This document shows, piece by piece, positions 14,645 to 38,109 of a DNA stretch of 44,764 nucleotides. Each line of letters opens with the position of its first letter. Within the stretch, counting starts at the first letter, position 1. Below the pieces are notes generated by a model. It did not search any database. It was not told where the DNA came from and saw only the letters and a program-made list of their open reading frames with translations. Made by a program: the position numbers and the translations under genes. The DNA comes from a virus (Duplodnaviria > Caudoviricetes), in IMG/VR virus record IMGVR_UViG_3300025267_000026, positions 1-44,764 of that record; one strand, 5' to 3'.

Positions 14645-17600
14645 GTGAGGAAAGTGAAAGCAGCTACATATAACCTGACGGATAACGCTTCTAAAATTTT
14701 AGAGAGGAGGTATTATCTGAAAGATGAGCAGGGAAATCTTATTGAAGATGCTGAAGGTATGTTCAATAGGGTAGCCCGTACTATGGCCGAGGTTGAATAT
14801 AAGTATGGGGCTACCGAATATCAGGTCAAAGAATTGGAAGAAACATTCTTTGATGTGATGTGGGCTTTGGATTTTGTTCCGAATAGTCCTACTCTTATGA
14901 ATGCGGGTACTGGTCAAGGAACTATGTCTGCCTGCTACGTTATGGATATTCCAGATAGCATGGAAGACATTATGCGTGTGGCGCATGATCAAGCCATGAT
15001 TGAAAAATTTGGCGGGGGGATAGGATTTAGTCTTTCAGCAGTACGTCCGAAAGGACACGGAATTTCTACTACGCAGGGTAAGGCATGTGGGCCTATTCAA
15101 GTATTAAAGGTTCTTTCTCAAGTTGGTACCATGATTACTCAGGGTGGAAAACGTGATGGTGCGCATATGGCTATCATGGAAGTTTATCATCCCGATATTG
15201 AAGAATTTATCCATTGTAAAAATACGGAAGGCTCCGTCACTAATTTCAATATTTCGATAGGTGCTGATAGTAATTTCATGGAGGCGGTTAGGCAAGATAA
15301 ATATATACGTTTAGCTTGGCCTCTTGATCATCAGTTTTATGAAGTACCGGATGCTACGATGGATGGTCGTTTTGTAAAAGCTAATGATCTCTATAGTGAA
15401 ATTATTAAAGGTGCTTGGATGAACGGTGAGCCTGGAATGGTATGGCTTGACCGCATTAATCAGGATAATACTACGCCTGCATTAGGTCAGATTAATGCAA
15501 CTAACCCATGTGTTATTAAGGGAACACTCGTTAATACTCCCTTTGGCTATAAACCTGTAGAAATTATTAAAGAAGGGGATTATATAAGCACTCTATTAGG
15601 GTCAGAACCTGTAAAAACAGTTGAAAGACATGAAGCCATTAATGTCTACCGAGTTAAATTTTCGGATGGGGGAGAACAAACAGTTACAGCGGCCCATCAA
15701 TATCACGCGATTAGAAAGGGTAGTGAACGTAAGCACACCCAAAAAATTAGATTAGATGAGTTGAATGTGGGGGATTATGTTCAGGTTTCTCCTGCTACCT
15801 TTACGGATTATGGGATTGACCAATATAAGGATGGGCTTAAATTGGGAATCTTGTTGGGGGATGGAAATTATATGAATTTAAATAGATCCATAAAAATTGC
15901 CTCCTCCTCCGAAGATGGGGAATATAATCATCTAATACAAGAATTGTTTGGTTTGGATGCTTTCAACAAACCTTCTTTGGCATATGATGGCAGTAAATCT
16001 ATGAATATGCTTATGTCTAAAGCGGCTTCTACTGCTGTCGCTACTAAATTAGAGTTAGCCGAAGCGTATTCCTATGAAAAAACATTAGATATTGTTCAGG
16101 TCAGTAGTAATGTGAGTATGGCTTTAGGCGTATTAGATGGATTCTTAGCTACTGATGGGGACATTAATTTAAGTACTAATCATCCACAAATTAGATTTAC
16201 CACTACCTCGCACACATTAGCTCAACAGATTCGTTTATTGCTTCTGGGATTAGGAATTCATGGACGTATTACTAATTCTTTTGATAAGGGCGGCGTGGTA
16301 AATGGTAGGGAAATCATACGGAAGCACACGAAGTATACGGTTAATGTGTCTGGGGCATCAGCCGGGGCATATGCTAGACAGTCTCGACTCGAAGAAATAC
16401 ATCCTGTAAAGGCAGAAAAATTAAAGCAATTACAAACAGATTGGTTGGTGACGGGTAATACATGGAAGACATCTATTCTTTCCATAGAACCTGTTGGAGT
16501 CGCCGAGGTATATGACCTGTATTGTGAAGCATCGGATACGTGGATTACGGAAGGCTATGTGCAACGTGGTTGTGGTGAGCAGCCGCTCCTGTCAGGAGAG
16601 TCCTGTAATCTAGGTAGTATCCATATTGGTAATTTTATTAAACATAATTATTTTGATGAAGAACGTTTTGCCAAAGTTGTAGGTATCTGTACTCGTTTCT
16701 TGGATAACGTTGTTGATGCTAATCAGCATCCTACGGAATACACTACGTTGATGAATCAAGCTACTCGCAAGATTGGTTTGGGAATTATGGGATTTGCTGA
16801 TTTATTGGTGCGGCTTAATATTCCTTATGATAGCGATAATGCATTAACGTTAGCCGATAGGATAGGTTCGATTCTTAAAGCGGAAGCTGATAAGACTTCA
16901 TCTGTAATAGCGCAGCATAAAGGGAATTTTCCAGCATTTGATAAGTCTCCTCTGAATAAGATTAATGGTGGTATGTGGGATACTATGCGTAATGCGTGGA
17001 GGTTATCTATAGCTCCCACGGGTACTATCAGCATGATTGCTAATTGTTCTAGCGGTATTGAGCCTCTATTTGCATTGGCATATAAGAAGCATAATATGTC
17101 TGCTGCATTAGAAAATATGGAACTTTTTTATATCAATGATGATTTAAAGAAAAATCTTGGTATGTCTTACGATGATGTTGAACAATATCTTAACGATGGA
17201 CATAGTATTGACAGTCTAATGGATCCGCAGCTTCGTTCTGTATTCATAGTTAGTGATGAAATCGGATATGAGAATCACATTAAGATGCAAGCAATTTTCC
17301 AAAAATATGTGGATTCAGGCATATCTAAAACTATTAATTTACCTAATGAAGCCACTGAACATGACATTGCTATGGCCTATAGTCAGGCATGGGAATCGGG
17401 GTGCAAAGGCATCACCGTATATCGACGTGGATCTAGAGAACGTGAAGTTCTAGTTTCGACGGCAAATAATACATCTGAATCTATGTCTCCATACGTCTCC
17501 ATTAAAGCTAGGGCTACGAAGTTAGTTGGGGCTACTACTTCATTGAGTACGGGGCATGGCAAAATGTATGTCACCGTTAATTATAATAAAGATCAAATTT

Positions 17601-17977
17601 ATGAGGTTTTGGCCCAAACAGGGAAAACAGGCAAATGTCAGGCAGCTAATACCGAAGCTATGGGGCGTTTGATTTCTACAGCGATTCAGTATGGTGTTCC
17701 AGTAGATGTCATTATAAAACAATTATTAGGAATTACTTGCTGTCCGATATGGAATAACGGTAAAATGGTATTGTCACTTGCTGATGGGATAGGACAGGTG
17801 CTAGCAGACTCTAGTGGGGTTTCTATTCATGCTAATGGGCATGGGGATGCTACTACCTTAGAGAATTTTAGCGAAATAATAGTGGGCGGATCACGTTGTC
17901 CCGAATGTGATGGGTCTCTATTTATGTCCGAAGGATGTTCTTCTTGCATGGAATGTGGTTATTCTAAATGCGGGTAG
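14645..17977 (+). CDS. nrdJ: Class II (adenosylcobalamin-dependent) ribonucleotide reductase with intein, C-terminal TSCPD-like domain and zinc ribbon
   Basis: PNSPTLMNAG, SACYV, GGGIG, QGGKRDGAHM, ATNP|CGEQPL, CNLGS, RKIGLGIMG, IAPTGTIS, SGISKTINL, CKGITVYR, CPEC..CSSCMECGYSKC. No nrdB in the window. Confidence 0.93.
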   Translation: MRKVKAATYNLTDNASKILERRYYLKDEQGNLIEDAEGMFNRVARTMAEVEYKYGATEYQVKELEETFFDVMWALDFVPNSPTLMNAGTGQGTMSACYVMDIPDSMEDIMRVAHDQAMIEKFGGGIGFSLSAVRPKGHGISTTQGKACGPIQVLKVLSQVGTMITQGGKRDGAHMAIMEVYHPDIEEFIHCKNTEGSVTNFNISIGADSNFMEAVRQDKYIRLAWPLDHQFYEVPDATMDGRFVKANDLYSEIIKGAWMNGEPGMVWLDRINQDNTTPALGQINATNPCVIKGTLVNTPFGYKPVEIIKEGDYISTLLGSEPVKTVERHEAINVYRVKFSDGGEQTVTAAHQYHAIRKGSERKHTQKIRLDELNVGDYVQVSPATFTDYGIDQYKDGLKLGILLGDGNYMNLNRSIKIASSSEDGEYNHLIQELFGLDAFNKPSLAYDGSKSMNMLMSKAASTAVATKLELAEAYSYEKTLDIVQVSSNVSMALGVLDGFLATDGDINLSTNHPQIRFTTTSHTLAQQIRLLLLGLGIHGRITNSFDKGGVVNGREIIRKHTKYTVNVSGASAGAYARQSRLEEIHPVKAEKLKQLQTDWLVTGNTWKTSILSIEPVGVAEVYDLYCEASDTWITEGYVQRGCGEQPLLSGESCNLGSIHIGNFIKHNYFDEERFAKVVGICTRFLDNVVDANQHPTEYTTLMNQATRKIGLGIMGFADLLVRLNIPYDSDNALTLADRIGSILKAEADKTSSVIAQHKGNFPAFDKSPLNKINGGMWDTMRNAWRLSIAPTGTISMIANCSSGIEPLFALAYKKHNMSAALENMELFYINDDLKKNLGMSYDDVEQYLNDGHSIDSLMDPQLRSVFIVSDEIGYENHIKMQAIFQKYVDSGISKTINLPNEATEHDIAMAYSQAWESGCKGITVYRRGSREREVLVSTANNTSESMSPYVSIKARATKLVGATTSLSTGHGKMYVTVNYNKDQIYEVLAQTGKTGKCQAANTEAMGRLISTAIQYGVPVDVIIKQLLGITCCPIWNNGKMVLSLADGIGQVLADSSGVSIHANGHGDATTLENFSEIIVGGSRCPECDGSLFMSEGCSSCMECGYSKCG
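15509..16570 (+). mobile_element. Intein (354 aa) with LAGLIDADG endonuclease and atypical C-terminus (QRG)
   Basis: Splits NP|CGE. Starts CVIKGT, block B TAAH, LGILLGDG and LDGFLATDG motifs, block F VYDL, ends EGYVQRG before the +1 Cys. Confidence 0.9.
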
Positions 17978-18087: not shown

Positions 18088-21000
18088 ATGTCTGTTGATT
18101 TATCAAAACTTCTAGCTCTTGAAACAGCTTTAGAGTACATGAGTAAAGCTACTCTTGGGGAGAAACTTGAATATTTAAAACCGGGAGAAAAGGCTCCTGG
18201 TGATACCAAGATTCATACTACTCCTCGTGGAGCTAAAGGATATTACCCTTCTGAGGTTTCTCGTAAAAAGGAGGCTGAACCATCTGCTAAGTTAGCACCG
18301 GATGAAGAAAAAGAAATCGAAGTAGTGCAGGCTCCTGAAATTAAGACTGAATCAGCGTCTGAATATCCTAAAAGCGTATTTGACTCTACTACAGAGCAGT
18401 ATCTTAATATAGTAGTTCCTGAGGATTCTAAGGTATATGGTATAGAAGCTGGGATACATCGGTTATCACAGCCACACGGTGCTCCTGTACGTGGTACACC
18501 TATATCACTCGACGATTCTAGGATCCCCGATACTGTTTACCATATGACTACCAATGCTCCAGCAGTAAGAGAATCTAAAAAATTGATTGCTGGTGGTGTT
18601 GGAGGGTTAGGGGGTGATGATAGAGATAAGATTGTTTCTTTAACTATTAATAAAGAGATTGCACATCAATTAGCGGACGATACTAAACTTGCTTCTGAGA
18701 TTAGTCGGATGGGGGGTGGAAAATATAAGTCTTCAGAACGTATAGAGGAATCAAGAGCAATAATTAAACGTTTGATTCAAGAGATGGAGAAAGAAGGGTG
18801 GGATAGTCCTAGATTCCGTGAGTATGATGACAATCATTTTGAATATATGCATGAGAGCTATAATCCTAAAGAATGGCTCTCTCAGTATTTTTCTGTTAGG
18901 GCTAGGGCTACTTCAAATTTAGGGAAAGAAAAACGTAATCCGTTATTTTTTACTGATTCAGAAGTTCTAGCTAAGGTAAATCCTGAAAATATAGATGTAA
19001 TTGAGATTCCTAAATCAGCCCTTCGTACTGGAGCAATGCTTACTGATTTGGATCTAGATAATCCATATGGCTTACAAGAAATAAGAATATATGGTGATAT
19101 TCCCATAGAAGCTACAATCGACCCTAAACGGTCTACTGATAAAGCTTCGTCATATAAAATGCCCAAATACGATATGAGTTGGGAAGCTCTCGTTGAAGCC
19201 GAGTTTAAAAATAAGGAACTTAATTTTATTCCTATTACTGATAAGATGCGTACTACAGGATATATTTCTAATCTAATTGAGGACACCGATAATGTAGTTC
19301 TTCGTATCGGTAATAGTATATATTTTGGGGAATCTGAAGACGATGTAAAGGATAAAGTACTTAAAGAATATACTGAAGGTAAGTATGGTTCTTCCTATCA
19401 TCCACCTAGATTAACTCCTAAACCAGAGTGGGCTACGGATGAGAATAACCCATTCCCTGACATTCCATCTGACATTAAAGAAATTCATTATGATGATATA
19501 CCTGAATTTTATAAAAAGCATAAATACGGGGATGCTTTACAACAGTTTAGTTCTTTGAAAGGAATTTCTAGAAAAATATCTAAGGTGGCTGGAATGCATT
19601 CTGAGCCATTTTATGAGGCTCTTGAGTGTGTTGATGGAGATCTTGATTATGAACATACTGCGGATGTTTTTTCACAAGAGTTAGAGGAGAGTGTTACCGA
19701 AAAACAGGCTAAATTAGCTCTGAATAGATTAAGGGATATGACTCAGAAATCCTTAAAGCATCGAGGATTGCCTGAAAAGTTTTATGTCTTTCGTGGTGGG
19801 AAGATTCATAATGAAGATCGTCCTATGCCAACATCTTTGAGTGCTGCCACGGCTGCGGAAAGCTATTTCTCTCAAAAAGGTGGGGAGCCATATGTAGCGA
19901 TGTATGAAGTGAATAGAAATGATGTTTTATTAGATATGAACTCTATGAAATCGGAAGCGCAAGGGGAAGAAGAACTTATCATTCTAGGTCGAAACTTAAA
20001 GAACCCACGTATGATTCGACTTTCTAATCAAATGGTTACGAATCCAGAGTTTCATAAATCTAAGTCTAATAATCTATTAAAACTTTTAGCTCTTGAAACA
20101 GCTATCGAGGTTCTTCTTAAAGTTAATCCTAATGAAGAACTTGAATATATTGATAGTGAGAGTGAATTACCTGAAGACACTAGGTTAGTGCGCACTCGAC
20201 GGGGGGCAATAGGCTATTACCCCTCAGAAAAGGGCCAACAACCTACATCTGATCAGATGCGTGACGATGTACGAGGTGAGCAGGACGTTCCCATAGACCG
20301 TCCTGAATTAGAACCTGATGACGAGTGGGAAATTTCGGCAGTAACAGCTCCTGCCTCCCCAGAATCCACGTCAGATGAAGTCGTAGACCACACAGACCGA
20401 TTACCTAATACTGATGAGTTTGATTGGTTTTCTGAACATTCAGAAATGAAATCACCGCATCAGATTAATAGTTATTTTGAGGAAGTTTCTTTATCTTTAG
20501 ATTCTCATCTGCAACAAACAAAGGGTTCTGATTTTAAGTCATTTTTAGGTAAAGGTATTAATCCAGCTCGTTTGAGTATTGATAATGCTACGAAGGCTGG
20601 GTATACAAATGGAAGTATAGAAGGGACTGGAATGCCTCCGGGGTTAGGCATTAATTCACTGTCTAACTGGACGATGACTATTGATGATAAACCTTTTATT
20701 TATAAATTAGTTTACGGTGAGAATCAGGCTGAGATATTCTCATATTCAATCGACAGAGCATTAGGATTAAATATTGTTCCATATAACAAACAACATTCTA
20801 TTGATGTCGATGTATTGAAGAGTCTTATAGAACGTACTCATAATGTTGATGACAGTATTAAAGATTTCGACATGGATATACATGCCGATGTAGGTAGAGG
20901 TAATAAAGCTGGAGGGCATTTTCAAGAATTTTGTACTAACTGTTTAGAACGTGAAGACCATAGGCAAGCAATAGGAAAAATGTTGTCTTCTGAAGAGGGT

Positions 21001-21618
21001 AGGGAAGAATTTTTTAAGATAATACTCTTAGACTTTATTACAGGCAATGATGATCGACATTCAGGTAATTATTTAATTACGGACGAACATAAAATAGTTG
21101 CTATTGATAATGGATTCGCTGGCTATGGCCGTGCTCATCAGGCTCATCAAGAGATGAAATCCGTGAATCTTTTAGAGCACGACAACTTATGGATAAGACG
21201 ATTAGAGATGGTTTTTCCATTTGGGGTAGCTGGTGTATTACGCAATGAAGTTGGCTATGAACGTGTAAGTGAGATAGCGGATCCACAAGCACTAGAACGC
21301 GAAGCTGAAGCAGTGTTTGACAAATATTTTACTCCTGCTAATAAAAACATATTAAATAAAGCATTACGTATGTCTAAATGGCAGATAAAGGTAGGCGAAG
21401 GTAGAGTATCTGATTTTGCTAAGTTGAAAAATCAATTTGTTTCCCATGCGGCGTCGAATTTACAAAGAGGAATAATTGGATACGGAACAGCAATGGATTC
21501 CATTCCTGAGGAATCGGAACCAATGGGACAGACAACGGCTGAAAAGGTTTTCTTTTCTATCGACGAAAACGCACTTGAAGAAGCTGGTTTAGAAGACGTT
21601 AGTTTAGGGAATAGATAA
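18088..21618 (+). CDS. Modular polyprotein: leader module, two ADP-ribosyltransferase-like domains, second leader module, HipA/PI3-4-kinase-like domain
   Basis: ART1 VYHMT..VSLT..QEIRIYGDIP. ART2 VFRG..PTSLS..GEEELII. Kinase GLGIN..IYKL..E..GHFQEF..DFITGNDDRHSGNYL..AIDNG. Leader at 18106-18255 and 20080-20229. Confidence 0.75.
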   Translation: MSVDLSKLLALETALEYMSKATLGEKLEYLKPGEKAPGDTKIHTTPRGAKGYYPSEVSRKKEAEPSAKLAPDEEKEIEVVQAPEIKTESASEYPKSVFDSTTEQYLNIVVPEDSKVYGIEAGIHRLSQPHGAPVRGTPISLDDSRIPDTVYHMTTNAPAVRESKKLIAGGVGGLGGDDRDKIVSLTINKEIAHQLADDTKLASEISRMGGGKYKSSERIEESRAIIKRLIQEMEKEGWDSPRFREYDDNHFEYMHESYNPKEWLSQYFSVRARATSNLGKEKRNPLFFTDSEVLAKVNPENIDVIEIPKSALRTGAMLTDLDLDNPYGLQEIRIYGDIPIEATIDPKRSTDKASSYKMPKYDMSWEALVEAEFKNKELNFIPITDKMRTTGYISNLIEDTDNVVLRIGNSIYFGESEDDVKDKVLKEYTEGKYGSSYHPPRLTPKPEWATDENNPFPDIPSDIKEIHYDDIPEFYKKHKYGDALQQFSSLKGISRKISKVAGMHSEPFYEALECVDGDLDYEHTADVFSQELEESVTEKQAKLALNRLRDMTQKSLKHRGLPEKFYVFRGGKIHNEDRPMPTSLSAATAAESYFSQKGGEPYVAMYEVNRNDVLLDMNSMKSEAQGEEELIILGRNLKNPRMIRLSNQMVTNPEFHKSKSNNLLKLLALETAIEVLLKVNPNEELEYIDSESELPEDTRLVRTRRGAIGYYPSEKGQQPTSDQMRDDVRGEQDVPIDRPELEPDDEWEISAVTAPASPESTSDEVVDHTDRLPNTDEFDWFSEHSEMKSPHQINSYFEEVSLSLDSHLQQTKGSDFKSFLGKGINPARLSIDNATKAGYTNGSIEGTGMPPGLGINSLSNWTMTIDDKPFIYKLVYGENQAEIFSYSIDRALGLNIVPYNKQHSIDVDVLKSLIERTHNVDDSIKDFDMDIHADVGRGNKAGGHFQEFCTNCLEREDHRQAIGKMLSSEEGREEFFKIILLDFITGNDDRHSGNYLITDEHKIVAIDNGFAGYGRAHQAHQEMKSVNLLEHDNLWIRRLEMVFPFGVAGVLRNEVGYERVSEIADPQALEREAEAVFDKYFTPANKNILNKALRMSKWQIKVGEGRVSDFAKLKNQFVSHAASNLQRGIIGYGTAMDSIPEESEPMGQTTAEKVFFSIDENALEEAGLEDVSLGNR
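18106..18255 (+). repeat. Shared leader module, copy 1
   Basis: KLLALETALEYMSKATLGEKLEYLKPGEKAPGDTKIHTTPRGAKGYYPSE. Confidence 0.9.
20080..20229 (+). repeat. Shared leader module, copy 2
   Basis: KLLALETAIEVLLKVNPNEELEYIDSESELPEDTRLVRTRRGAIGYYPSE. Confidence 0.95.
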
Positions 21619-23594
21619 TGCCTGCTGTTTTAATTTACAATCAAAAGAATTTAGAGTACGTTGTTTTATCTAATCGACGAATCTTTGGTACTAATAAAGA
21701 TTTAGTTGAGCCTATTACTGCTGCTGAGCGGCATCCTCTTTGGACACGACCTGAACTTCGTAAGAGTCTTCAACGAGAAGGAGAACGTTTCTTTAAGACG
21801 CATGAAGAGAAATTAGGCACTTCTTTGAATATGAATACTGATGGCGATAAGATGTCGCCTGGATTCTTCCTATATCTCACATTTTGTCGCTTTCAGAATC
21901 AACAATATCAAGCATCGATCATACCTCTTTCTGATTTGCCTAGTGTAGTAGGTAAGAAATTACAAAAGAGTGATGATAATTTAGCTAAATTATTAGCTTT
22001 AGAGACTGCTATAGAATATTTAATTAAAGCTAATCCCCAGGAACAACTTGAATATATAGATAGTGAAAGCGAGCTACCTAAAGATACTCGATTAGTGCGT
22101 ACTAAGCGAGGAGCGATTGGGTATTTCCCTTCAGAGATTGGTCAACATCAACCAGGTCGTATAGAAGAAGACATAGGTGGTAAACCAGAACCTGATGCAG
22201 AACGTGAAATTAGCGGTATTCAGGCTCCTGAGTTAGATGACGACGATGATGATGAAGATGAAGGGCAAGGTATTATTGGTGATAAGATTGATGCCAAGTC
22301 TTTTATCAAAAAGATGGAAGATAGTCAGTATCGATCTTTAGCGGATTTACTTAACGAATTACCTAGAATTTCTGTTGATGAGAAGAAAGAATTAGTTAGA
22401 CAAGCTGCGTTAGAAGGTAAGGGTCCACAAACTGATGCTGTTCCTATTAAGCCTAATATTGCAGTTGTTAATGATGAAGGTCGAGTAGTTCAAATATCTA
22501 CTGCTGATGGACAATTACAAGCGGTACAAGAGTTTGACCCAGAGAAACCAGAACGTGGGGGGAAACGACACCTATTCTTCAGTACTAATGCTAACGATAA
22601 GATTCAAGTAGCTTGGCTTGATGGACTAGGCCGACCACATGCTGGATATAGTGCTAAATATACCAAGAGCCAAGCTATTAAGAAATTTGATAAGATTAAG
22701 CAATTAGCTAAGGTTATTTCGAAGATTGAGAAACAGTGTAAAACTGACATTACTAGTAATTCTAAAAATAAAGAGGCAGCTTTAGCTATAGCTTTAGTCC
22801 ATAATACGTATCGTCGTATTGGTAGTGGTAGTTCTAAAGTTACATGGGACGGTGAGGAAGGACGACCTGGCCCTAAGAAAGATAAAGAAGGTGCATTTAT
22901 TAGAGACTATGTTGATACTTTTGGTGTAACTAGTTTCCAAAATCAACATCTCATAGTTAAGGGCAATAAAGTTCACCTTAATTTCTTAGGTAAATCAGGA
23001 AAATTAAATTATGTGGAAGTTACAGATTCTTTAGTTAAGAAAGAATTAATTGCTCGTAAGAAGGCAGCAGGTAAGGATAAAACCGCTGTTATTATAAATA
23101 TTAATCCTCCGGCTGTTAACGCATATTTAAAGCAAGCATCAGGCGGAGACTTTAGTGTAAAGAATTTCCGTACTTATCATGCTACTAGATTAGCCGCAGA
23201 TTTGATTGCTAAGACTAAGACTCCAAAGTTGAATAGAGTTAAATTTGATGGCTTTATGAAGCGACGGGTTACTGCAGGTAAAATTAAAGATGCTACGCAG
23301 TGGAAAGAAGAAGCCTTTTTATGGGTCTTAAAAGAGAGAAATAAACTTAAATTAGATGTAATTGGTGAGCCGATTTCCAATAAATTAAGTAATACTAAAG
23401 CTGTTTGTATAGCTCAATATATTGATCCTCAGTTATTTAAGAATTGGGATTTTTCATTTGATGGAGAGGCGGATGGTATGTTACGTTCTCGTCCACCTGC
23501 AGCCAATAAACTCAAAGATGCCGTAAAGAAAGCGGCAGCAGCAGCGAAGAAAGTTAAAAATCCACCCAAAGCTAAAAGAAAGAAAAAAACATAA
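21618..23594 (+). CDS. Type IB DNA topoisomerase (bacterial/poxvirus-like) fused to a ~115 aa N-terminal domain and the leader module
   Basis: Catalytic set intact: RIG (R at 22815), FLGKSG (K at 22992), KNFRT (R at 23169), LSNT (N at 23391), QYIDP (Y at 23418). Also IQVAWLDGLGR..Y and TFGVTS. K/A-rich tail. Confidence 0.9.
   Translation: MPAVLIYNQKNLEYVVLSNRRIFGTNKDLVEPITAAERHPLWTRPELRKSLQREGERFFKTHEEKLGTSLNMNTDGDKMSPGFFLYLTFCRFQNQQYQASIIPLSDLPSVVGKKLQKSDDNLAKLLALETAIEYLIKANPQEQLEYIDSESELPKDTRLVRTKRGAIGYFPSEIGQHQPGRIEEDIGGKPEPDAEREISGIQAPELDDDDDDEDEGQGIIGDKIDAKSFIKKMEDSQYRSLADLLNELPRISVDEKKELVRQAALEGKGPQTDAVPIKPNIAVVNDEGRVVQISTADGQLQAVQEFDPEKPERGGKRHLFFSTNANDKIQVAWLDGLGRPHAGYSAKYTKSQAIKKFDKIKQLAKVISKIEKQCKTDITSNSKNKEAALAIALVHNTYRRIGSGSSKVTWDGEEGRPGPKKDKEGAFIRDYVDTFGVTSFQNQHLIVKGNKVHLNFLGKSGKLNYVEVTDSLVKKELIARKKAAGKDKTAVIININPPAVNAYLKQASGGDFSVKNFRTYHATRLAADLIAKTKTPKLNRVKFDGFMKRRVTAGKIKDATQWKEEAFLWVLKERNKLKLDVIGEPISNKLSNTKAVCIAQYIDPQLFKNWDFSFDGEADGMLRSRPPAANKLKDAVKKAAAAAKKVKNPPKAKRKKKT
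21987..22136 (+). repeat. Shared leader module, copy 3
   Basis: KLLALETAIEYLIKANPQEQLEYIDSESELPKDTRLVRTKRGAIGYFPSE. Confidence 0.95.
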
Positions 23595-23769: not shown

Positions 23770-23982
23770 ATGACACAAAATAATAAAGCGTTACAGGATG
23801 TCTTTGAAACCACCCATTATTCGCAAGAACTAGTCGATACTAGTGCTGAGGAAGATGAGGTTGATCCTGACGATGATGAAGATTATGAGCCGGAACTCAC
23901 TCTTGGACAACAACTAGGAATGATGACAGATGAAGAGTTTGAGGAATTTCTAGATACACGTCGTGACGGTAAAAATATATGA
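23770..23982 (+). CDS. Small highly acidic protein (70 aa)
   Basis: EEDEVDPDDDEDYEPE..DEEFEEFLD. Has an RBS and promoter, and is ATGA-coupled to thyX. Confidence 0.7.
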   Translation: MTQNNKALQDVFETTHYSQELVDTSAEEDEVDPDDDEDYEPELTLGQQLGMMTDEEFEEFLDTRRDGKNI

Positions 23983-25904
23983 TTGTAGAACCACAAGTTT
24001 TTTTAATTGGTGAGTCGGTAGTTAATAAGGAAGGTCTTAGTGCCTTCCTTACTCATTTAGGCGTACCAGAGTGGGAATCTAATGCCCCTACGGATATAGA
24101 GCTTCTAACTGAGGTTTATGGTAGGGCATGTTATAAGTCATTTGGCACGGAGTTGAATCCTAATCTTACTCGTGTTCGTGGCTCTAATGAAGCTTATATT
24201 TCTAATGTTATAGAAAAAGGCGATGGCTCGGTATTAGAGCATGGTGTCGCCAATTTCTTCTTCTGTGATGTTAGTAGAACATTCACCCATGAGTTAGTCC
24301 GGCATCGCGTCGGCACTGCGATATGTTTAACCGGTGATACGTTAATTTCATCGGAACACTATGCTAATGGTGCATTAAATAGAGTGCCGAAACGTAGATT
24401 AGATTATTTGTATGGTTTAACTAAAACACCACAGGGACGTTCTAGAATTCCTTTATTGAGGTTGAGAGTTTTAGATGAGGGTTCAGGAAAATTTACATCT
24501 ACTCGTCATGGGGTAAAATCAATTGTCTATACGGGAAAACATCCTGTTTTTGAAGTTACCTTAGAGAACGGATACAAATGTAAGATGACTAAAAACCATA
24601 AAGTTTTAACATCGACGGGATGGAAAACGTTAGAGAATGCTGTTCAATTTTTAGAGGTTTGGCCGTCAGGTAAGGCGTATTATGGATTAAATCCGGTTTT
24701 TATTGCTACCAATGGTTATCGTATTTCGGAGACAGCTATTCTCAATTCTACAGGTATTCCATTGTATAGAGATAAAGATTGGTTAGAGGGTCAAATTAAA
24801 GAGGGAACTTCTTTTGAGGAGATAGCGATTAAGGCGGGAGTATCCGTTAATACAATTAAAACATGGAAAACCAAACATGGCTTGGGAGGTATTCGTAGAG
24901 CAAATTCTTCTCTTTGGGCGAAGCCCGGTAATAAAGGTAAATCTTATAAATTACGACCAAAAACTGAATCTGAAAAGCATGCTATTTCAGTTAGAATGAC
25001 TGGCTCTAATAATCATAGATGGAAAGGTTTAGGTGGCCGTAAAAATAGATTATTACCTTATGCTCTACGTAAAGAAATTTTAACTAGAGATAATTTTAAA
25101 TGTGTTCTTTGTGATAATAGTAGATGGGAATGGAACGGTAGAAAAATTAGATTAGAAATACACCATATTGATCCCTGGGAACTGGATAAGCCTACTAATC
25201 TAGAGCCAACCAATTTAATTGTGTTGTGTAAACTATGTCATACAGAAGTTACTAATAAAGAACAACAGTTTGCGGATTTATTTTTTTCCCATACTACTAA
25301 TAATAGTTTTACGAAAGCCATTACTATTCCACCCCGCAATTACGGTGGAGTTAAACCTAAATATACTAAAATTATTGGCATTACATATCGTGGAATAGAG
25401 GATACTTACGACATTATTATGAATGACCCCCATCACAATTTTGTGGCTAATGGTTTGGTTGTTCATAATAGTCAGGAATCACTTAGGTTTGTTCGGTTAA
25501 CGGATTTAAATTTTTATGCACCATTATGTATACAAGAAAATGATGAAGCTATGACTCTCTTTACCAAAACATTTGAAGAACTATCTTCTTTGCAGAAAGA
25601 AATGGCAGAACTTTTTGATGTAGACCGCCTGGATTCTTTTCACAAGAAAAAAGAAATTACATCGGCGATGCGACGACTAGCTCCTATCGGTTTAGCGACG
25701 AATATCGGTTGGAGTTGTAATATGCGTACTTTACGTCATGTTATTGAGATGCGGACTGATCCAGGGGCTGAAGAAGAAATTCGTCTTGTTTTCGCTAAAG
25801 TAGCTGATATTGCGATTGCACGCTGGCCGAATTTATTTGCTGATTATTCGGTAGAGATTATCGATGATTTCCCCTCCTTTAAAACCATGAATAAAAAAGT
25901 GTAA
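23979..25904 (+). CDS. thyX: Flavin-dependent thymidylate synthase with intein
   Basis: GRACYKS, SVLEH, VSRTFTHELVRHR..|SQESLRFV, NMRTLRHVIEMR..AEEEIR. Confidence 0.93.
   Translation: MIVEPQVFLIGESVVNKEGLSAFLTHLGVPEWESNAPTDIELLTEVYGRACYKSFGTELNPNLTRVRGSNEAYISNVIEKGDGSVLEHGVANFFFCDVSRTFTHELVRHRVGTAICLTGDTLISSEHYANGALNRVPKRRLDYLYGLTKTPQGRSRIPLLRLRVLDEGSGKFTSTRHGVKSIVYTGKHPVFEVTLENGYKCKMTKNHKVLTSTGWKTLENAVQFLEVWPSGKAYYGLNPVFIATNGYRISETAILNSTGIPLYRDKDWLEGQIKEGTSFEEIAIKAGVSVNTIKTWKTKHGLGGIRRANSSLWAKPGNKGKSYKLRPKTESEKHAISVRMTGSNNHRWKGLGGRKNRLLPYALRKEILTRDNFKCVLCDNSRWEWNGRKIRLEIHHIDPWELDKPTNLEPTNLIVLCKLCHTEVTNKEQQFADLFFSHTTNNSFTKAITIPPRNYGGVKPKYTKIIGITYRGIEDTYDIIMNDPHHNFVANGLVVHNSQESLRFVRLTDLNFYAPLCIQENDEAMTLFTKTFEELSSLQKEMAELFDVDRLDSFHKKKEITSAMRRLAPIGLATNIGWSCNMRTLRHVIEMRTDPGAEEEIRLVFAKVADIAIARWPNLFADYSVEIIDDFPSFKTMNKKV
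24324..25469 (+). mobile_element. Intein (382 aa) with HTH and HNH endonuclease
   Basis: Starts CLTGDT, block B TKNH, ends NFVANGLVVHN|S. Internal RDNFKCVLC..LEIHHIDP..NLIVLCKLCH. Confidence 0.92.
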
Positions 25905-27077: not shown

Positions 27078-27550
27078 AGATTAGTGAGCAACTTGGGGTA
27101 CCGCTTGAATTGCTCACTACTTGGTCATTCACGGGACAATGGGATGTTGCTTTACCAGATACGTTAGTGATTGGTGATAATGCTTTTCCTAGTGCTATAG
27201 AAAAAAGTGCTATAGAAAAAAAAGCTCCTATCTATGACGTAACTGCCGCAGATCTTAAGCAAGAAGCCAATGATACACTTTTAGCCGGTTATAAATTAGT
27301 CGGTAATGTCGCTCAAGAAGCATTACTGAACGAGAATATAAAGTTTAAAGATAAGAAACAAGCATCTGACGCTCTTATCGAAAGTCTAAAAGGACAAGTT
27401 TCACTTCTAGGGGCTGATTTATCTCAGCAATTTCTACTAGATGTGGCAAAAATAATACGTGAAGAAATCGCAGACCAAGAAATCCTTCAAAGACTCGGCG
27501 TCAAACTCACCGCCCTTGGTAGACTTTACAATACTAGGATCTCTGCTTAA
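26969..27550 (+). CDS. terS: Probable terminase small subunit
   Basis: N-terminal HTH (REEAKKLYERG..EISEQLGVP..LTTW....WD) with a helical C-terminal part, directly upstream of terL. Confidence 0.65.
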   Translation: MAGTNNGEYRGGPNEDWTEKIREEAKKLYERGSELLEISEQLGVPLELLTTWSFTGQWDVALPDTLVIGDNAFPSAIEKSAIEKKAPIYDVTAADLKQEANDTLLAGYKLVGNVAQEALLNENIKFKDKKQASDALIESLKGQVSLLGADLSQQFLLDVAKIIREEIADQEILQRLGVKLTALGRLYNTRISA

Positions 27551-30500
27551 CGATAGTAGTATTGATTCTACGGAAGATATTGCAGAGTTAGCGTCTGACG
27601 ACCGTTGGGAATTTATTCCAGTTGATTTAGAAACTTTTCTTTATGGAGAAGAGTATCTCAATCTTACGATGCGACTGTCTGCTCCCCAGCTTGAGTTTGT
27701 TGATAATACCTCTAATATCTTTAATCCACCGTTTTTCACTGAAAGTGTATTAATGGCGGGGCAAGGTTCGGGTAAAGATACGTGTTCTATCTTGATAGGT
27801 TTACGTATTGTTTATCTATTACAATGTTTAAAGAGTCCACAAGCATATTTTGGGATGGACACTAATGGATTCATCGATTCAATTAATGTGGCTCAGAACG
27901 CAGACATCGCCAGGAATATCTATTTCAGTACTCTTTCTAATATTCTACGTAGTTCTCCTTTATTCGTTGACGATTCTTTACCTCATTATATTTCCCCTCG
28001 TATTACTCAACAGACTGTTGTATTTCCTAAAAATATACGCCTTATTTCGGGTAACTCTGAAAATGAGTCTTGGCAGGGTTATACGCCTATTTTGATTATT
28101 CTTGATGAGATTGATGCATTTAAGAGTGAGCAGGAATTACAACGTAGCCATTCTTTACGTAGTGAAGGAGCTGAGGGGGTATATAACACCGCTAAGGCTT
28201 TGATTCAGTCTCGTTTTCCTGGGGTGGGTAAAGTTATTTGCTTGTCTTGGCCTAGATTTAAAGGTTCATTTATACAACGACGGTTCACTAATGGAAAATT
28301 AGAAGACCGTACTTTTGTTTCATGTAAGGAAGGGGGGCTTCCTTTTACTACGTGGGAATTTAATCCTTCTAAGAAAGAATCTGATTTTATAGATTTCTAC
28401 GAAACTGATCCTGTTCTAGCGCGTGCTCGTTTTGAATGCTTTGATGGGGATACTCTTATAATTAGTGAAGAAGGGACTAAACCCATTAGAGATGTCATTA
28501 TTGGTGACCGTGTTTTAAGTCATCAAGGACTTAATAAGGTTATTCGAAAATTTGAAAAGAACTATACTGGGGATATATTGGAGATTACTCCTTGGTATCA
28601 TCGTCCGATAAAGATAACTCCTGAGCATCCTATTTTAGCGATTAAGCAGAGTGGTAATTGGAGAAAATTTTATAAACATAAATTGGCCGACATCACACCA
28701 ACTTGGATACCGGCCAATCAGTTAACCAAAAATGATATTGTGTTGCTGAAAATTCCTGAAGATTGTGAAGATGTAAAATCTATTGATTTATCTGATGGTT
28801 TAGAAAAAGATAGTTTTATTGAGGAAGAAAATTATCTTTGGGCATCTCAAGTATCTAAATTGAATAATGGCGGCGTCAGTGTACAAAAACATCCTTTTGC
28901 ACACAAGTTGAGTAAATATATCGATGTTAGTAATGAATTATTATTTTTAAGTGGACTATATCTAGCTGCAGGTACCCTCGGTACAAAACTGCGTGCTATG
29001 ACCTTTTCGTTTGATAAACATGAACGATCATTAATTGACAACACTAAAAAACTAGTTGACCAAGTTTTTGGTATATTTCCTGTTGAATACAACGTACTCA
29101 CTGTAACTGATGTGCTTGTCTGTAATACGATAATAAGTCATTTTTTTGCTCAATTTGGTAAAAGAGCTACGAACAAACGTATTCCTGAATGGATCATGAA
29201 TCTACCCCCAGAAAAACAACAACATCTATTAGATGGATATTTTGAGAGTGATGGTCATGATGATATAAAGGGTAAAGGGGTCACTACTGTTTCGAAAGAA
29301 TTAGCATATCAAGTTAAAACTATTGCTTTGCGCTTGGGAATGCCTGCGAGTGTATACCATCGTCCTATGGCATCGACAGGCGTGATGGAGGGGCGAACTA
29401 TCAATCAAAGTCCTGCTTTTAGGACTAGAATTTACAAGAATCCCTACTATCAGTTAATTAAAGATGGTTTTTGGTATGTACCTGTACGTAAAATACAATC
29501 TTTTAAATATGATGATACCGTCTATAATTTAGAGGTAGAGTCCGCTAATTCTTACACAACCGAATCTTTTACTGTACATAACTGTGACCCACCATTTGCT
29601 CGTGATGCCTATATCAAAGACCCACTTCCTATTTTACGTGCTTTTGATGCTGAGGTAGATGAAGTTGGACAGATAACGTGGGGACGTCTTAAAGAGCATA
29701 GGGATGAATCAGGATTACATATTGGAACCAAATATTATATTCATGTGGATTTAGGATTACGACATGCTAATGCTGCCGTATGTGTAGCACATCAAGGAGA
29801 TGAGCATGTTGTCATCGATGTGATTAAGATTTGGGAACCTGAACCTGAATATGATGTAGATTTTGCCAATATTGAGAATTTTATACTAGGATTACGTGAT
29901 AAAGGGCACAGAATCGTTAGTGTGACGTATGATAATTATCAATCAGTCAGTTCATTACAAAAATTAGCTAAATTTGGTATTCCGGCTAAGTATAAATCTA
30001 TAGGTAGAAGTAGTAAAGAAGCTTACGATACGTTTAAAGATTTACTCTATCAGGAAAAATTAGATGGTTTTTATGATAAAGAGACAATAGAAGAGCTTTT
30101 AAGTTTAGACGTAGTATATGGCGATAAAATTGAAGCTCGTCCTGGTATGAAAAAGGATAGAGCGGATGCGGTAGTCGGCGCAGTACATGGCGTTTTAAAA
30201 GAAAAAGGTACAGTAACAGGTCTGCGGAATATGGGCGGAATTAACACACTTTTTGAAAATCGCAACAATCCACAAACAACTGCGAATGAAAAAGCTAAAA
30301 ATCCGTTAAAAACCCCTACTAATTCAGGTTGGGGGCGAGATGCCGTCCAAGAACGCATTGTTAGTAGTAGTTCTGATGTATGTGTTGTGTGTAACCGTGT
30401 TGGTGGTATAGAATATACTGATGAATTAAATAATAGAGTATTTGATGATGATGGGGCATATTGGCGAATATGTCTAGTTTGTGCGTCTAAATGGGTAAAA

Positions 30501-30572
30501 GAAGGTACCAATTGGGTTATTTGTAGAGCACCGGACGATTATTCAATGCAAGAAATTATAGGGACGATTTAA
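27459..30572 (+). CDS. terL: Terminase large subunit with intein and C-terminal Cys-containing extension
   Basis: Walker A GQGSGKD, Walker B IILDEID, LSWPR, nuclease IHVDLG, TYDNYQS, KDRADAV. Followed by portal. Start uncertain. Confidence 0.92.
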   Translation: MKKSQTKKSFKDSASNSPPLVDFTILGSLLNDSSIDSTEDIAELASDDRWEFIPVDLETFLYGEEYLNLTMRLSAPQLEFVDNTSNIFNPPFFTESVLMAGQGSGKDTCSILIGLRIVYLLQCLKSPQAYFGMDTNGFIDSINVAQNADIARNIYFSTLSNILRSSPLFVDDSLPHYISPRITQQTVVFPKNIRLISGNSENESWQGYTPILIILDEIDAFKSEQELQRSHSLRSEGAEGVYNTAKALIQSRFPGVGKVICLSWPRFKGSFIQRRFTNGKLEDRTFVSCKEGGLPFTTWEFNPSKKESDFIDFYETDPVLARARFECFDGDTLIISEEGTKPIRDVIIGDRVLSHQGLNKVIRKFEKNYTGDILEITPWYHRPIKITPEHPILAIKQSGNWRKFYKHKLADITPTWIPANQLTKNDIVLLKIPEDCEDVKSIDLSDGLEKDSFIEEENYLWASQVSKLNNGGVSVQKHPFAHKLSKYIDVSNELLFLSGLYLAAGTLGTKLRAMTFSFDKHERSLIDNTKKLVDQVFGIFPVEYNVLTVTDVLVCNTIISHFFAQFGKRATNKRIPEWIMNLPPEKQQHLLDGYFESDGHDDIKGKGVTTVSKELAYQVKTIALRLGMPASVYHRPMASTGVMEGRTINQSPAFRTRIYKNPYYQLIKDGFWYVPVRKIQSFKYDDTVYNLEVESANSYTTESFTVHNCDPPFARDAYIKDPLPILRAFDAEVDEVGQITWGRLKEHRDESGLHIGTKYYIHVDLGLRHANAAVCVAHQGDEHVVIDVIKIWEPEPEYDVDFANIENFILGLRDKGHRIVSVTYDNYQSVSSLQKLAKFGIPAKYKSIGRSSKEAYDTFKDLLYQEKLDGFYDKETIEELLSLDVVYGDKIEARPGMKKDRADAVVGAVHGVLKEKGTVTGLRNMGGINTLFENRNNPQTTANEKAKNPLKTPTNSGWGRDAVQERIVSSSSDVCVVCNRVGGIEYTDELNNRVFDDDGAYWRICLVCASKWVKEGTNWVICRAPDDYSMQEIIGTI
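28437..29582 (+). mobile_element. Intein (382 aa) with LAGLIDADG endonuclease, first motif degenerate
   Basis: Starts CFDGDT, block B TPEHP, motifs SGLYLAAG and LDGYFESDG, ends VYNLEV..FTVHN|C. Confidence 0.92.
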
Positions 30573-32422
30573 TGGGATTAGTTGATTCATTAGCGAACGT
30601 ATTTGGAGCCGATGTTTCTCAATCTTCCTCATTAGCTAGTCGTAATATTGCTGGTGGGGAAGTTCCTAGTAATCTCGACCAATACTCACGCGTTAACGGA
30701 TTATTAGGTACTCTTGATTCGCTAGTTAAGGCTGCGGAAACGGCTCAAGGTGCAAATGGGGCCACGGGGCGTATGTCTCCGTTGGGTCTTGATGCAATTA
30801 TTCAAGACTGGGTTCGTCAGCAATTCATATATCGACGTAGTATCTTACAGGACTTATATGTTCTCGCATATCAAGTCACAGAGATTAGGTCGGTAGTATT
30901 AGCGATTTTACGTGAAGTCTTTAGAAAAGGCTTTTCTACGTGGCAACAAAGGTATGTTCGTAAATGTGTTCAATGTGAAAAAGAATTTGATGACGAAGAA
31001 GATGAACATTGTGATGATTGTTTCGTATTTGAGGTTGTAGACCAAGATGTATTTGATGCTGAATACGGGGAGATTATTAGTAAAAAGGTACGTAAATATA
31101 AAAGAGATAGCAATGGCGAAAAAATACCTGTAACAACCTCTATTCCTGATTTTACTCAACAGAAAGTATTTGATGATTTAATAAGCAATGGCAATAGTTT
31201 CCATCAGTCTCTAGAATCTATTCTTCATGAATTTATGACGGATATCTTGATTGCTGATGATGGATTCTTGTTACTTAATAAAGAGTATCAGATAGATTCA
31301 GTGTCAGGCAAAATTAGTAAATCACAGATTTTTGAGGTTACTAGATTACATCCCGCATTAACTGAATATGACATAGATAGGAAAGACGGATTACCAGAAC
31401 GTTCTCATTTCTTATGCCCGATTCATCGAGAACAACAGACTCATACATCGCCTGGTAGATGTGACGTAATCGCTACAGAAGGGTTTAGATGTAATGCTAG
31501 ATTACTACCCGCTATGTATCGATACTATTGGCGTGGACGTTATCGTTACTATTTAGCTGATGAGATATGTCACGCCTCTTTCTTTAATCCGTCTAAAACT
31601 TATGGTTATTCTCCTGTTCTTACTGTCTTTGAGAAAGTTCTGTCTATAGTAGGAGCAGACCGGACACTCTATAGATACTGGTATGAACGGCGAATTCCAC
31701 CCGGATTATTGATTACTTATACTGATGACCCTGAATCCTTGGAAACAGAGATTGAACGTGTTAAGACGCAAATGCTTAATGACCCGAACACGTTCCCATG
31801 GGTTGCAGCATCCGCTAGAAATAATCGTGGTAAGACTGACTTTGTTAAGTTAGCGTATACCTTCCAAGAATTGGACTATCTACCGGTTAGGCAGGAGATT
31901 CGTGACCGTGTAGCTATGTTATGGGGCGTCACCCCTCTATTTTCAGGAGATGCGTCTAGTGTTGGCGGTTTGACCAGAGAATCTGCTCAAACTGATATGC
32001 ATAATAAATTAGTGGAATCGTATCAAAACGTAATTAATCATAATGTTATTCCGTTCATGTTACAGCAATTAGGGATAACTGATTGGGAAATACACTTACA
32101 GCCTCCACAGGAGGAGACTGAGGAGATTCAACTAACTGTAGAAAAAATGCGTCTGGAGAACGCTAATATGATGCTGCAGTTAGGGTATGAAGCTATTAAA
32201 GAAAAAGGTAAAGAGATTAGGTTTAAATATAAGAAGATGGACCAACCACCAGGTATGACTGGTGCTCCAGGGATGGAAGGTATGCCGCCTGGTGGTGGTA
32301 TGCCGGGAATGGAACAACCTCCTAGTGGGGGTGAACCAGCTGGTGTAGACCAATTACCTCCTCCCCCTCCCATAGAAGGACCAGAGATGTCTGAAGCTGG
32401 CGTACCCCTTTCTGAAGAATAA
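30572..32422 (+). CDS. Portal protein with Cys-rich insertions
   Basis: Directly after terL. DILIADDGFL, YGYSPV, RYWYERRIPPGLL, RVAMLWGVTP..GD..GGL. P/G/M-rich tail. Confidence 0.88.
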   Translation: MGLVDSLANVFGADVSQSSSLASRNIAGGEVPSNLDQYSRVNGLLGTLDSLVKAAETAQGANGATGRMSPLGLDAIIQDWVRQQFIYRRSILQDLYVLAYQVTEIRSVVLAILREVFRKGFSTWQQRYVRKCVQCEKEFDDEEDEHCDDCFVFEVVDQDVFDAEYGEIISKKVRKYKRDSNGEKIPVTTSIPDFTQQKVFDDLISNGNSFHQSLESILHEFMTDILIADDGFLLLNKEYQIDSVSGKISKSQIFEVTRLHPALTEYDIDRKDGLPERSHFLCPIHREQQTHTSPGRCDVIATEGFRCNARLLPAMYRYYWRGRYRYYLADEICHASFFNPSKTYGYSPVLTVFEKVLSIVGADRTLYRYWYERRIPPGLLITYTDDPESLETEIERVKTQMLNDPNTFPWVAASARNNRGKTDFVKLAYTFQELDYLPVRQEIRDRVAMLWGVTPLFSGDASSVGGLTRESAQTDMHNKLVESYQNVINHNVIPFMLQQLGITDWEIHLQPPQEETEEIQLTVEKMRLENANMMLQLGYEAIKEKGKEIRFKYKKMDQPPGMTGAPGMEGMPPGGGMPGMEQPPSGGEPAGVDQLPPPPPIEGPEMSEAGVPLSEE

Positions 32423-35400: not shown

Positions 35401-35472
35401 CCTGATAAACCAGCCCCTAAGACTAGTACTACCGCTCCAATAACTGGTGCAGGCTCAGCAGGTGGAGCTTAA
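32425..35472 (+). CDS. Large low-complexity protein, probable internal head/ejected protein
   Basis: 1015 aa rich in charged, G and A residues, directly after portal. Contains a leader-like EYLDPGEQPPEGV..RYY segment, DxxG(N/Q) repeats and SDTS repeats. Confidence 0.6.
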   Translation: MTTVDSIVHKLDLLTKEQEEHWTLPALDDVINQFEAAFIVPYSEAGIPLLTEYFDKAAKPNKTILTKKGEELADADDAELNPEEQKRAAFARGVRKNYNSVKKEHEKYENIDMELLKPYYNEMMQGLMGSNPAVEGGGRRQRTSGTLPKAAKQLMSAFAQQADDVAQAIADGKSEKEILGAAFPRNGLRMNMIGDAGVDIQVRVKMNTDGKSFSVAQRTGGKGKFKTIKGGENVKNFGRAIKHGEDAILAKAKGRQAQFGGVDIGKNRRQNRAWLNANVRQDFGGPMTNLAPKPKDKEKYAKEYEKNISQQLEDAGIDDEFMVEAAELGGDDIIDGDAAEALPSIIDNAPNLALSSILASVASGYITSPNQLRRTLRETSKKISENSQHGADSSNNDKPGSVGWGGKSEAKKGIGGIFSEWGKAFSSGWSEGWEKGQHFGAHTLGGVKYRAPDSEQYKRDPRGYWAERGKLATMLARADNQYTDDVAAAMAMGEVSIDSDGTVKQREVSFVDADGNRQKYMKNINPREDALESALVKFAKAEDKIEAMASDNTGSSLEAIREHVDQIRDGNKNAMPPSENWPNRDGGWQRRRQLEKNIELVPAKPAGSRVSSAAEALMGPRGREKKASGEAGGIAEGEVGDARQTQQKRPKLVDEIVPQLDAEGNIVLDEQGQPVPQLDEAGNPVTRPMVDPEGGKYIGAVDARADREYLDPGEQPPEGVKEYTAERRGKEGKRARYYSRKEAAAVRNKQQNGGKDTDERDTSSNGSDSDTSSDTSSGTRSDTSSDTTRKKRATAEDEEYLRGRREGGRRAARQVREESDDPVIEKAGEHEMAPTNAPKTPPDAQADQYQKAMENEIAGAKRVQQQSKARSAKAQARVAKARADEAEVKARRAEDDREVHISELLHKLDSNINTLTITSNPEIVGIYQHLEKTIGELEKGAGGRIDKQGNPFASLAGHMSAAFREAGKSKKKSTTPRTQAKPSLPEYDPQPTPDKPAPKTSTTAPITGAGSAGGA
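34546..34650 (+). repeat. Diverged copy of the second half of the leader module
   Basis: EYLDPGEQPPEGVKEYTAERRGKEGKRARYYSRKE compared with EYLKPGEKAPGDTKIHTTPRGAKGYYPSE. Confidence 0.65.
34729..34788 (+). repeat. In-frame 12-bp tandem repeat, five copies (SDTS-like)
   Basis: agcgatactagc/agcgatactagt/agtggtactagg/agcgatactagt/agtgatactact. Confidence 0.9.
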
Positions 35473-37812: not shown

Positions 37813-38109
37813 ATGGCAAATGATATTTTTGTTTTAGTAACTCCCGATTTTGCTAATGCGGGAGTTGCCAAAGACATACAAGGAGTAGTTCTACCTAGTA
37901 AAAAAACTCTTGGTAGGGATAAAGATTTTCTAAAAATACAAGTAGATGAAGCACAACAATATTGGCAAGAGGATGGCAATTCAGGAGATATACCCACTGA
38001 TGTTCTTTATCGTTATTTATCACAGATGAATATGAGTGCATATCGTGCTGGATGGGTACTTCCTGTTGATGAAGCTAGAGAATTAGTTAAGAAAAGTGGG
38101 GGTCTATAA
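37813..38109 (+). CDS. Small protein resembling the N-terminal domain of the topoisomerase IB fusion (candidate kinase partner)
   Basis: Start reassigned to ATG 37813 after AAGGAG. VVLPSKKTLGRDKDFL resembles VVLSNRRIFGTNKDLV, and YRAGWVLPVDE resembles YQASIIPLSD. Confidence 0.65.
   Translation: MANDIFVLVTPDFANAGVAKDIQGVVLPSKKTLGRDKDFLKIQVDEAQQYWQEDGNSGDIPTDVLYRYLSQMNMSAYRAGWVLPVDEARELVKKSGGL

Follow-up and report, generated by a model that had tools for sequence, protein, structure and literature searches.

What does a tailed phage gain by placing the same short peptide ahead of several unrelated enzymes? The question is raised by a 44,764-nt stretch of viral DNA (Caudoviricetes; IMG/VR record IMGVR_UViG_3300025267_000026; hereafter 'the window'). 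An earlier reading of the bare letters, referred to here as the original prediction, had noticed a module of 50 amino acids (aa) three times over in the window, each time in front of a different enzyme, and had proposed that formerly separate tagged genes were fused into cleavable polyproteins. We call this module the tag. Our comparisons make it rather probable that the tag combines a capsid-loading propeptide with a head-protease site and stands at the head of swappable enzyme cassettes, packaging and cleavage being deduced from sequence. The two open reading frames (ORFs) concerned, one of which encodes domains resembling ADP-ribosyltransferases (ARTs), and the tag copies within them are as follows.

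18088-21618, plus strand: ORF A, a polyprotein of 1176 aa with tag 1, ART-like domain A, probable ART domain B, tag 2 and a PI3K/HipA-like kinase
18100-18255, plus strand: tag copy 1, whose helix (18100-18147) ends in Met-Ser-Lys20 and is followed by the mini-domain
20074-20229, plus strand: tag copy 2, whose helix ends in Leu-Leu-Lys678, then Val
21618-23594, plus strand: ORF B, 658 aa, with an N domain of 120 aa, tag 3 and a topoisomerase IB
21981-22136, plus strand: tag copy 3, whose helix ends in Leu-Ile-Lys137, then Ala

A peptide under purifying selection occurs three times in two polyproteins

The three 50-residue copies (18106-18255 and 20080-20229 in ORF A, 21987-22136 in ORF B) aligned without gaps. 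Copies 2 and 3 shared 42 residues, copies 1 and 2 shared 27, and copies 1 and 3 shared 28, far above the maximum of 15 identities reached in 60 trials in which both proteins were shuffled; the threefold repeat is thus real. Copies 2 and 3 had also been described as alike in protein yet divergent at synonymous positions, and the comparison of synonymous and non-synonymous change set beforehand bore this out: the two have 111 of 150 bases in common, use different codons at 23 of their 42 identical residues, and differ at a proportion of 0.75 of synonymous (pS) but 0.12 of non-synonymous (pN) sites (Fisher p 5e-12). Across 24 ungapped copies from the window and its relatives, the helix had a pN/pS of 0.33 and the second half one of 0.44; pS was close to saturation. 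Purifying selection acts on the tag peptide.

Contigs of other public runs span the junctions of copies 2 and 3 without differences, so the fusions are not assembly errors; the same proteins recur in L001 and P0013, and the four runs kept as contigs contained no joint that skips a cassette. Internal translation starts were ruled out as well, given the scarcity of suitable signals: among 17 internal copies, an in-frame start codon within the last 8 codons was present at one and a ribosome-site-like word at three, and neither was found at the two internal copies of the window.

To place these copies in a wider context, we collected homologs. Tag scans returned 10 loci in viral data and 15 in metagenomes; several of these entries are duplicate contigs or the window. 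Protein searches added 38 matches and 29 representatives, of which two (P0047 and P0054) were removed as repeat-protein false positives. In total, we report 85 distinct copies from 67 proteins (N-terminal in 23 cases, internal in 62), with at least two copies in 15 proteins; these include close strains and do not count as independent events. The tag had no match among 185,579 prokaryote genomes, whether cellular or prophage, and a search of annotated phages with window copy 1 returned a single chance match (E 8).

The tag has two separable halves

The tag consists of a 16-residue helix ending in hydrophobic-x-Lys, where x is any residue, and a mini-domain of ~30 residues. An AlphaFold model based on 36 aligned copies (predicted local distance difference test, pLDDT, 90; predicted template modelling score, pTM, 0.56) placed the helix at residues 2-16 and, beyond a linker, a small mini-domain of beta structure at ~24-52. 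The original prediction would have been undermined by membership in a known family of unrelated function; no curated family matched isolated copies in PHROGs or NCBIfam, or covered the tag in whole-protein Pfam scans. Neither Foldseek nor VIA-align found a fold match in the PDB (best VIA-align Z 2.2), which does not by itself make the fold novel, and an ESM Atlas search with the tag was uninformative (best score 0.76).

The tag is not one unit, as each half was found apart from the other. The helix is joined to shorter Gly-Pro-Arg-Gly variants in P0009 and L012 and lacks the mini-domain altogether in P0033, while in P0052 and P0053 the mini-domain follows another leader, still ending in Ile/Leu-Ser-Lys-Ala. 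Within the window, too, a mini-domain occurs without its helix, and each tag is followed by an acidic 'VQAP' box.

34543-34620, plus strand: fourth, helix-less copy of the mini-domain, in a gene of 1015 aa 3' of the portal gene (23 bits; 22 bits in the ortholog of the relative G001)
18298-18336, plus strand: acidic 'VQAP' box behind tag 1
20314-20352, plus strand: 'VQAP' box behind tag 2
22191-22229, plus strand: 'VQAP' box behind tag 3

In relatives, the VQAP box precedes most cargo domains, including those without a tag.

The helix ends in a conserved lysine

Lysine occupied helix position 16 in 68 of 74 matches that had been scored without the last positions of the helix, and ended the helix in 79 of the 85 distinct copies. 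Hydrophobic-x-Lys likewise preceded 85 of 88 mini-domain matches, a count that is partly circular because the mini-domain profile was built from Lys-bearing copies. In 61 copies selected as Lys-bearing, the following residue was Ala in 44, Val in 10, Met in 3 and another in 4.

The original prediction had instead drawn attention to Lys-Ser sites upstream of the two internal copies (FHKS and LQKS). Both are present; across the collection, hydrophobic-x-Lys-Ser lies 5' of 25 of the 62 internal copies (29 with Ala and Gly allowed), far fewer than carry the helix-end lysine, and was discarded as a conserved site. The candidate cut site is therefore likely the lysine at the helix end and not the upstream Lys-Ser. 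Cleavage is the likeliest purpose of the tag.

Tag-headed cassettes are exchanged by crossovers inside the helix

Cargo across the window and its relatives comprises kinase, topoisomerase IB, ART-like, GNAT, zincin and DUF192 domains, with zincins at two loci (L011, L023) and in two database proteins (P0018, P0041). DUF192 is a recurrent cargo that often sits immediately 5' of a tag copy (L007, L009, L011, L012, L023). A search of related phages for separately encoded units, as the original prediction had suggested, uncovered stand-alone genes made of the tag and a kinase (L002, L004, L018, L020), the first ART-like domain (P0045), a GNAT-like domain (P0044) or a zincin (P0041); the four kinase genes lie at the locus corresponding to that of the window and start with the tag.

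Closer inspection of two genome pairs revealed how such units move. The match of L002 and L018 to the window breaks off at 18135, within helix 1, and resumes at 20092, within helix 2, so that the ART cassette of the window is bounded by helices. L023 and L011 are 99.6-99.9% identical apart from one tag-headed unit of 469 codons, again with the junction inside the helix; the short form of this pair also occurs in L024 and L025, and the long form in one contig only. In both pairs, a crossover within the helix thus added or removed a cassette. The proposed origin of the polyproteins from fused tagged genes holds in that separate tagged genes exist, but the position of the DNA breakpoints inside the helix favours recombination between tag copies over simple loss of stop codons.

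Within one genome, the mini-domains of the kinase and the topoisomerase agreed at 22-27 of 30 positions, as compared to 15-18 of 30 with their counterparts in the L004 lineage. The mini-domain of window copy 1 shared 20 of 30 positions with L004 and 15-16 with its own neighbours. Being of the L004-like type, copy 1 suggests that the ART cassette of the window stems from another lineage.

The lysine motif recurs in the head proteins of a complete relative

The window contains no head protease gene, and the evidence on this enzyme comes from G001, a complete relative (141 kb, with terminal repeats) that has two copies of the tag and whose head operon (L033:983-6306) encodes a protease, a scaffold-like protein and a capsid protein. 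The protease matched TIGR01543 (E 2e-4), PF04586 (E 0.0015) and phrog_23555 (E 5e-5); a genome search for PF14550 in G001 gave no match. The protease has ~790 residues ahead of its catalytic domain.

In five head-operon proteins, a set chosen after the sequences had been seen, hydrophobic-x-Lys accounted for 48 of 125 lysines where 26 were expected (p 9e-5). The scaffold-like protein stood out (13 of 21 lysines, 4.5 expected, p 2e-4), as compared to 492 of 1647 lysines in the remaining proteome (450 expected). With a matrix derived from the tag helices, the N-terminal helix of the scaffold ranked second among 1893 other Lys sites, and both its lysines are kept in 20 of 20 relatives; the motif marks the capsid leader as well as the scaffold. 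Lysines in the motif were modestly better conserved than other lysines in the protease (0.83 vs 0.68) and in the gene before it (0.78 vs 0.53).

A link to haloarchaeal viruses

Among annotated phages, the G001 capsid protein matched only eight Haloarcula virus records; it most resembles its counterparts in haloarchaeal viruses, despite replication genes of the bacterial type. Capsid proteins of the Druskaviridae are reported to fall inside a largely marine clade (PMC8651126). The capsid protein of HVTV-1, which like HCTV-5 is a haloarchaeal virus of the Druskaviridae, had no sequence match among solved structures.

The divergent tag copy of L026 matched zeta-toxin proteins of Haloarcula viruses (best E 1e-3), whose genes lie between the portal and the protease/capsid genes and join the zeta-toxin to an ART or, by annotation, to ParB. 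The mini-domain profile recovered six copies in HVTV-1 gp115 and gp116 and HCTV-5 gp114 (9-22 bits, as compared to at most 4.4 in a reversed control), four of them behind hydrophobic-x-Lys and the other two being tandem second copies. When viral models were searched with the tag model, ranks 1-4, 6, 7 and 9 went to three proteins of uncultured archaeal viruses, which came first, to two proteins of HVTV-1 and to a pair of unnamed entries. An archaeal virus protein among them is annotated as an XkdF-type protease, and one unnamed entry is as long as HCTV-5 gp114. The halovirus proteins thus share with the marine phages a mini-domain behind a helix ending in hydrophobic-x-Lys, shuffled enzyme cargo and a related capsid protein (31% identity over 163 residues); they differ in their helix, which is unlike the marine one, in having a second leader type, in the location of their genes within the head operon and in their archaeal hosts. 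This second repeated leader of the halovirus polyproteins (L037:9453-13394, L036:8986-12867) is rich in Trp and follows helices ending in Lys.

Comparison with known systems

In phage T4, a conserved leader, the capsid-targeting sequence (CTS), sends unrelated internal proteins to the prohead core (PMC3012670), and head-packaged ARTs such as Alt have been described (PMC9503650). The tag is likewise a leader common to unrelated cargo (kinase, ART-like, GNAT, zincin), with 23 of its 85 copies N-terminal; it differs in comprising two parts and ~50 residues, in its Lys in place of Glu at the candidate site, in the 62 copies lying internally and in a candidate protease that weakly resembles the HK97 family. 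The T4 sequence is N-terminal, has ~10 residues and is cut after Glu by the prohead protease gp21.

Polyvalent proteins join unrelated enzymes, vary strongly between relatives and have been proposed to be packaged and injected (PMC5512222, PMC9503650). ORF A and its relatives (500-2100 aa) resemble them as mosaics of unrelated enzymes (ART, kinase, GNAT, zincin), with the difference that a repeated tag stands between the domains; the available text of these accounts describes no such tag, proposes processing by zincin or assemblin-like domains and does not name topoisomerase IB as cargo (PMC5512222, PMC9503650). Zincin metallopeptidases, a hub domain of the polyvalent class, occur among the relatives but were not detected in ORFs A and B. 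MuF-fused effectors differ in their MuF domain, for which ORFs A and B gave no match in Pfam, PHROGs or NCBIfam.

As for the protease, the HK97 family (Peptidase S78, TIGR01543) is a weak match to the G001 enzyme, and the HK97 site, K103/S104, falls after Lys as does our candidate. The HK97 enzyme cuts the scaffold domain off its own capsid protein, and the accessible part of that account describes no repeated cutting of multi-enzyme cargo (PMC10275583). A prohead protease also trims DarA, a head protein of phage P1 (PMC12810830). Judged by these comparisons, the tag would resemble the T4 capsid-targeting sequence in its working and appears to sit in proteins of the polyvalent class, but it is repeated inside chains and is neither a T4-type leader nor a MuF fusion. 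A literature search of limited coverage, with supplements (e.g. those of PMC5512222 and PMC8651126) outside its reach, found no description of the tag.

Proposed mechanism and alternative explanations

Taken together, these observations point to the following sequence of events. The helix likely draws the precursor into the assembling head, where the phage head protease likely cuts after its last lysine and frees single enzymes. The mini-domain likely remains at the N-terminus of every enzyme so released, as a signal for its retention or ejection; this role is the least supported step. The enzymes might then be ejected with the DNA into the host, which is likewise highly tentative; there, the ART and the kinase would modify host proteins and the topoisomerase IB would relax the incoming genome. 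The DNA of the tag doubles as a crossover point for cassettes, as seen in the two genome pairs. In its broadest form, which we regard as possible though doubtful, the proposal would extend to a portable module of tailed viruses of both bacteria and archaea, in which the helix loads, a Lys-specific protease frees, the mini-domain steers the product out and the sequence serves as crossover point for an arsenal that includes a virion-delivered topoisomerase IB.

Several observations weigh against loading and cutting in the head. ORFs A and B lie amid genes of DNA metabolism (ribonucleotide reductase, ThyX), ~4 kb before the terminase gene and outside the head operon. Copy 2 has Val after its lysine, as do 10 of the 61 copies, and lysine is absent from 6 of the 85. 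Precedent is unfavourable, too: in SPN3US, 13 of 14 mapped cuts remove N-terminal propeptides and ~80% of head proteins are uncut, according to the part of the study available to us (PMC10052503), so internal cutting into separate enzymes has no precedent there. The TIGR01543 and PF04586 matches fall below the curated cut-offs, and the protease is known from a relative, the window being a fragment. The link to the scaffold is also open to objection: profile comparison of the tag with the scaffold N-terminus was weak (probability 0.8%, E 0.067), high-scoring helix sites were barely enriched in a wider set of 13 head genes (p 0.04-0.42), the top non-tag match of the helix matrix was an unrelated ORF of 125 aa, and scaffold lysines in the motif were no better conserved than others (0.88 vs 0.95). 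Finally, the E-values of the fold search were weak (0.036-0.96), though its probabilities were high.

Some of these points would fit a tag that binds capsid or scaffold and is never cut, the polyproteins being packaged whole and the lysine serving in binding or in capping the helix. The variable residue after the lysine and the copies lacking it speak for such a repeat, and phage N4 packages its virion RNA polymerase without processing it (PMC5512222). We grant this explanation a modest chance: hydrophobic-x-Lys persists where another leader has taken the place of the helix (P0052, P0053), stands before the unlike leader of one cargo-A homolog (P0064) and is over-represented in the scaffold, which belongs to a class of proteins that is normally digested. 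Somewhat less probable still is a role outside the virion, with the tag bringing enzymes together in the infected cell, either as a complex or at one location. The location between ribonucleotide reductase and ThyX and the usefulness of a topoisomerase IB in replication would suit it, as would the greater likeness of tags within a genome than between positional counterparts, which is expected for any shared partner; yet the mini-domain also occurs in the gene 3' of the portal, in halovirus head-cluster genes and, judged by its fold, in a head protease of XkdF type.

Packaging by the tag followed by processing through a cargo zincin, or through a host protease after injection, we judge improbable. 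Zincins are among the cargo of four of the collected loci and proteins, and processing of this kind has been put forward for polyvalent proteins by Iyer et al. (PMC5512222). However, no zincin was detected in either ORF A or ORF B, nor in the G001 kinase gene that bears a tag; their Lys sites are nonetheless kept, and the scaffold and capsid leader bear the same motif. That the repeat is a mere recombination joint or a neutral linker kept by cassette shuffling accounts for the breakpoints inside the helix and is otherwise largely refuted by the synonymous excess: synonymous sites approach saturation while the protein is kept, the opposite of a repeat maintained at the DNA level, and the mini-domain is predicted to fold. 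Only a very slight chance is left to it.

If loading and cleavage by way of the tag are correct, the set of enzymes injected by these phages could be read from sequence and its reshuffling followed, the tag being both processing signal and crossover point. A topoisomerase IB would be unusual among head cargo, and protein delivery by phage heads might make use of such a short and portable tag for loading. The zeta-toxin/ART polyproteins that HVTV-1 and HCTV-5 encode, so far unexplained, would also gain a role; the role of Druskaviridae zeta toxins is stated as unknown in the available text of PMC4284463. Since both viruses are cultured, the idea is directly testable.

Cargo domains of ORFs A and B

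The original prediction had the tag preceding ARTs, a kinase and a topoisomerase IB. The annotation of the cargo is as follows.

18400-19110, plus strand: cargo domain A, with a His...Glu pattern, ART-like by eye, unconfirmed
19660-20040, plus strand: core of cargo domain B, likely an ADP-ribosyltransferase of the Arg-Ser-Glu type
20395-21615, plus strand: kinase cargo, PI3/PI4-kinase-like (HipA/SCO1664-like), a weak match (E 1.6e-4, below the cut-off) with stand-alone tagged orthologs in L002, L004, L018 and L020
21618-21962, plus strand: N domain of ORF B, without a family match
22260-23591, plus strand: topoisomerase IB cargo (PF01028, 74 bits against a cut-off of 23.7)

The topoisomerase IB assignment stood firm and the kinase assignment is weak. 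Among solved structures, the topoisomerase matched 2f4q (E 3e-8), a Deinococcus-type enzyme, and its catalytic motifs were located. ORF A had no sequence match among solved structures.

Copy 1 is followed by two domains that no tag separates; tools support only the second of them as an ART. Cargo B carries the Arg-Ser-Glu motifs; Pfam itself gave no match, and the Atlas neighbours of cargo B (scores 0.91-0.94, 130-151 of 256 features in common) carry PF03496 (20% and 94% of members) and PF26816 (100%), making it probably an ART. For cargo A, the His and Glu are invariant in 11 homologs, and the ART call is unconfirmed because the model was poor (pLDDT 55) and without a Foldseek match; a profile comparison with another His-type domain (L006) was not significant. 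In other phages, cargo-A homologs have another leader, rich in Gly, where the tag would be (P0064, P0065), and in P0064 this leader comes after Thr-Leu-Lys.

The N domain of ORF B weakly resembles the product of a small gene at 37813-38109 (probability 83%, E 9e-6, 35 columns). This gene comes after a second kinase (35488-37746), just as the N domain comes after a kinase, and both products may, from their order and resemblance, be kinase partners or inhibitors.

Genomic context

The 44.8-kb window is a fragment of a large tailed phage encoding DnaB, DnaG, DNA polymerase A, RecA, RuvC, ribonucleotide reductase, ThyX, terminase and portal. Its replication genes suggest a bacterial host. Runs sharing at least half of its words were marine metagenomes (5 of the 21 runs listed, 2 of the 5 possibly being its source), with no RNA dataset among the 21.

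27459-30572, plus strand: large terminase
30572-32422, plus strand: portal

The gene of 1015 aa downstream of the portal gene (32425-35472) has no family match and keeps several hydrophobic-x-Lys sites in G001. The same motif ends the leaders of a small acidic protein (38109-38522), a tRNA nucleotidyltransferase (38700-40235) and the portal, likewise in G001; the tRNA nucleotidyltransferase may be a further head cargo. Inteins with homing endonucleases interrupt ribonucleotide reductase (14645-17977), ThyX (23979-25904) and the terminase, whose L004 orthologs are shorter and intein-free.

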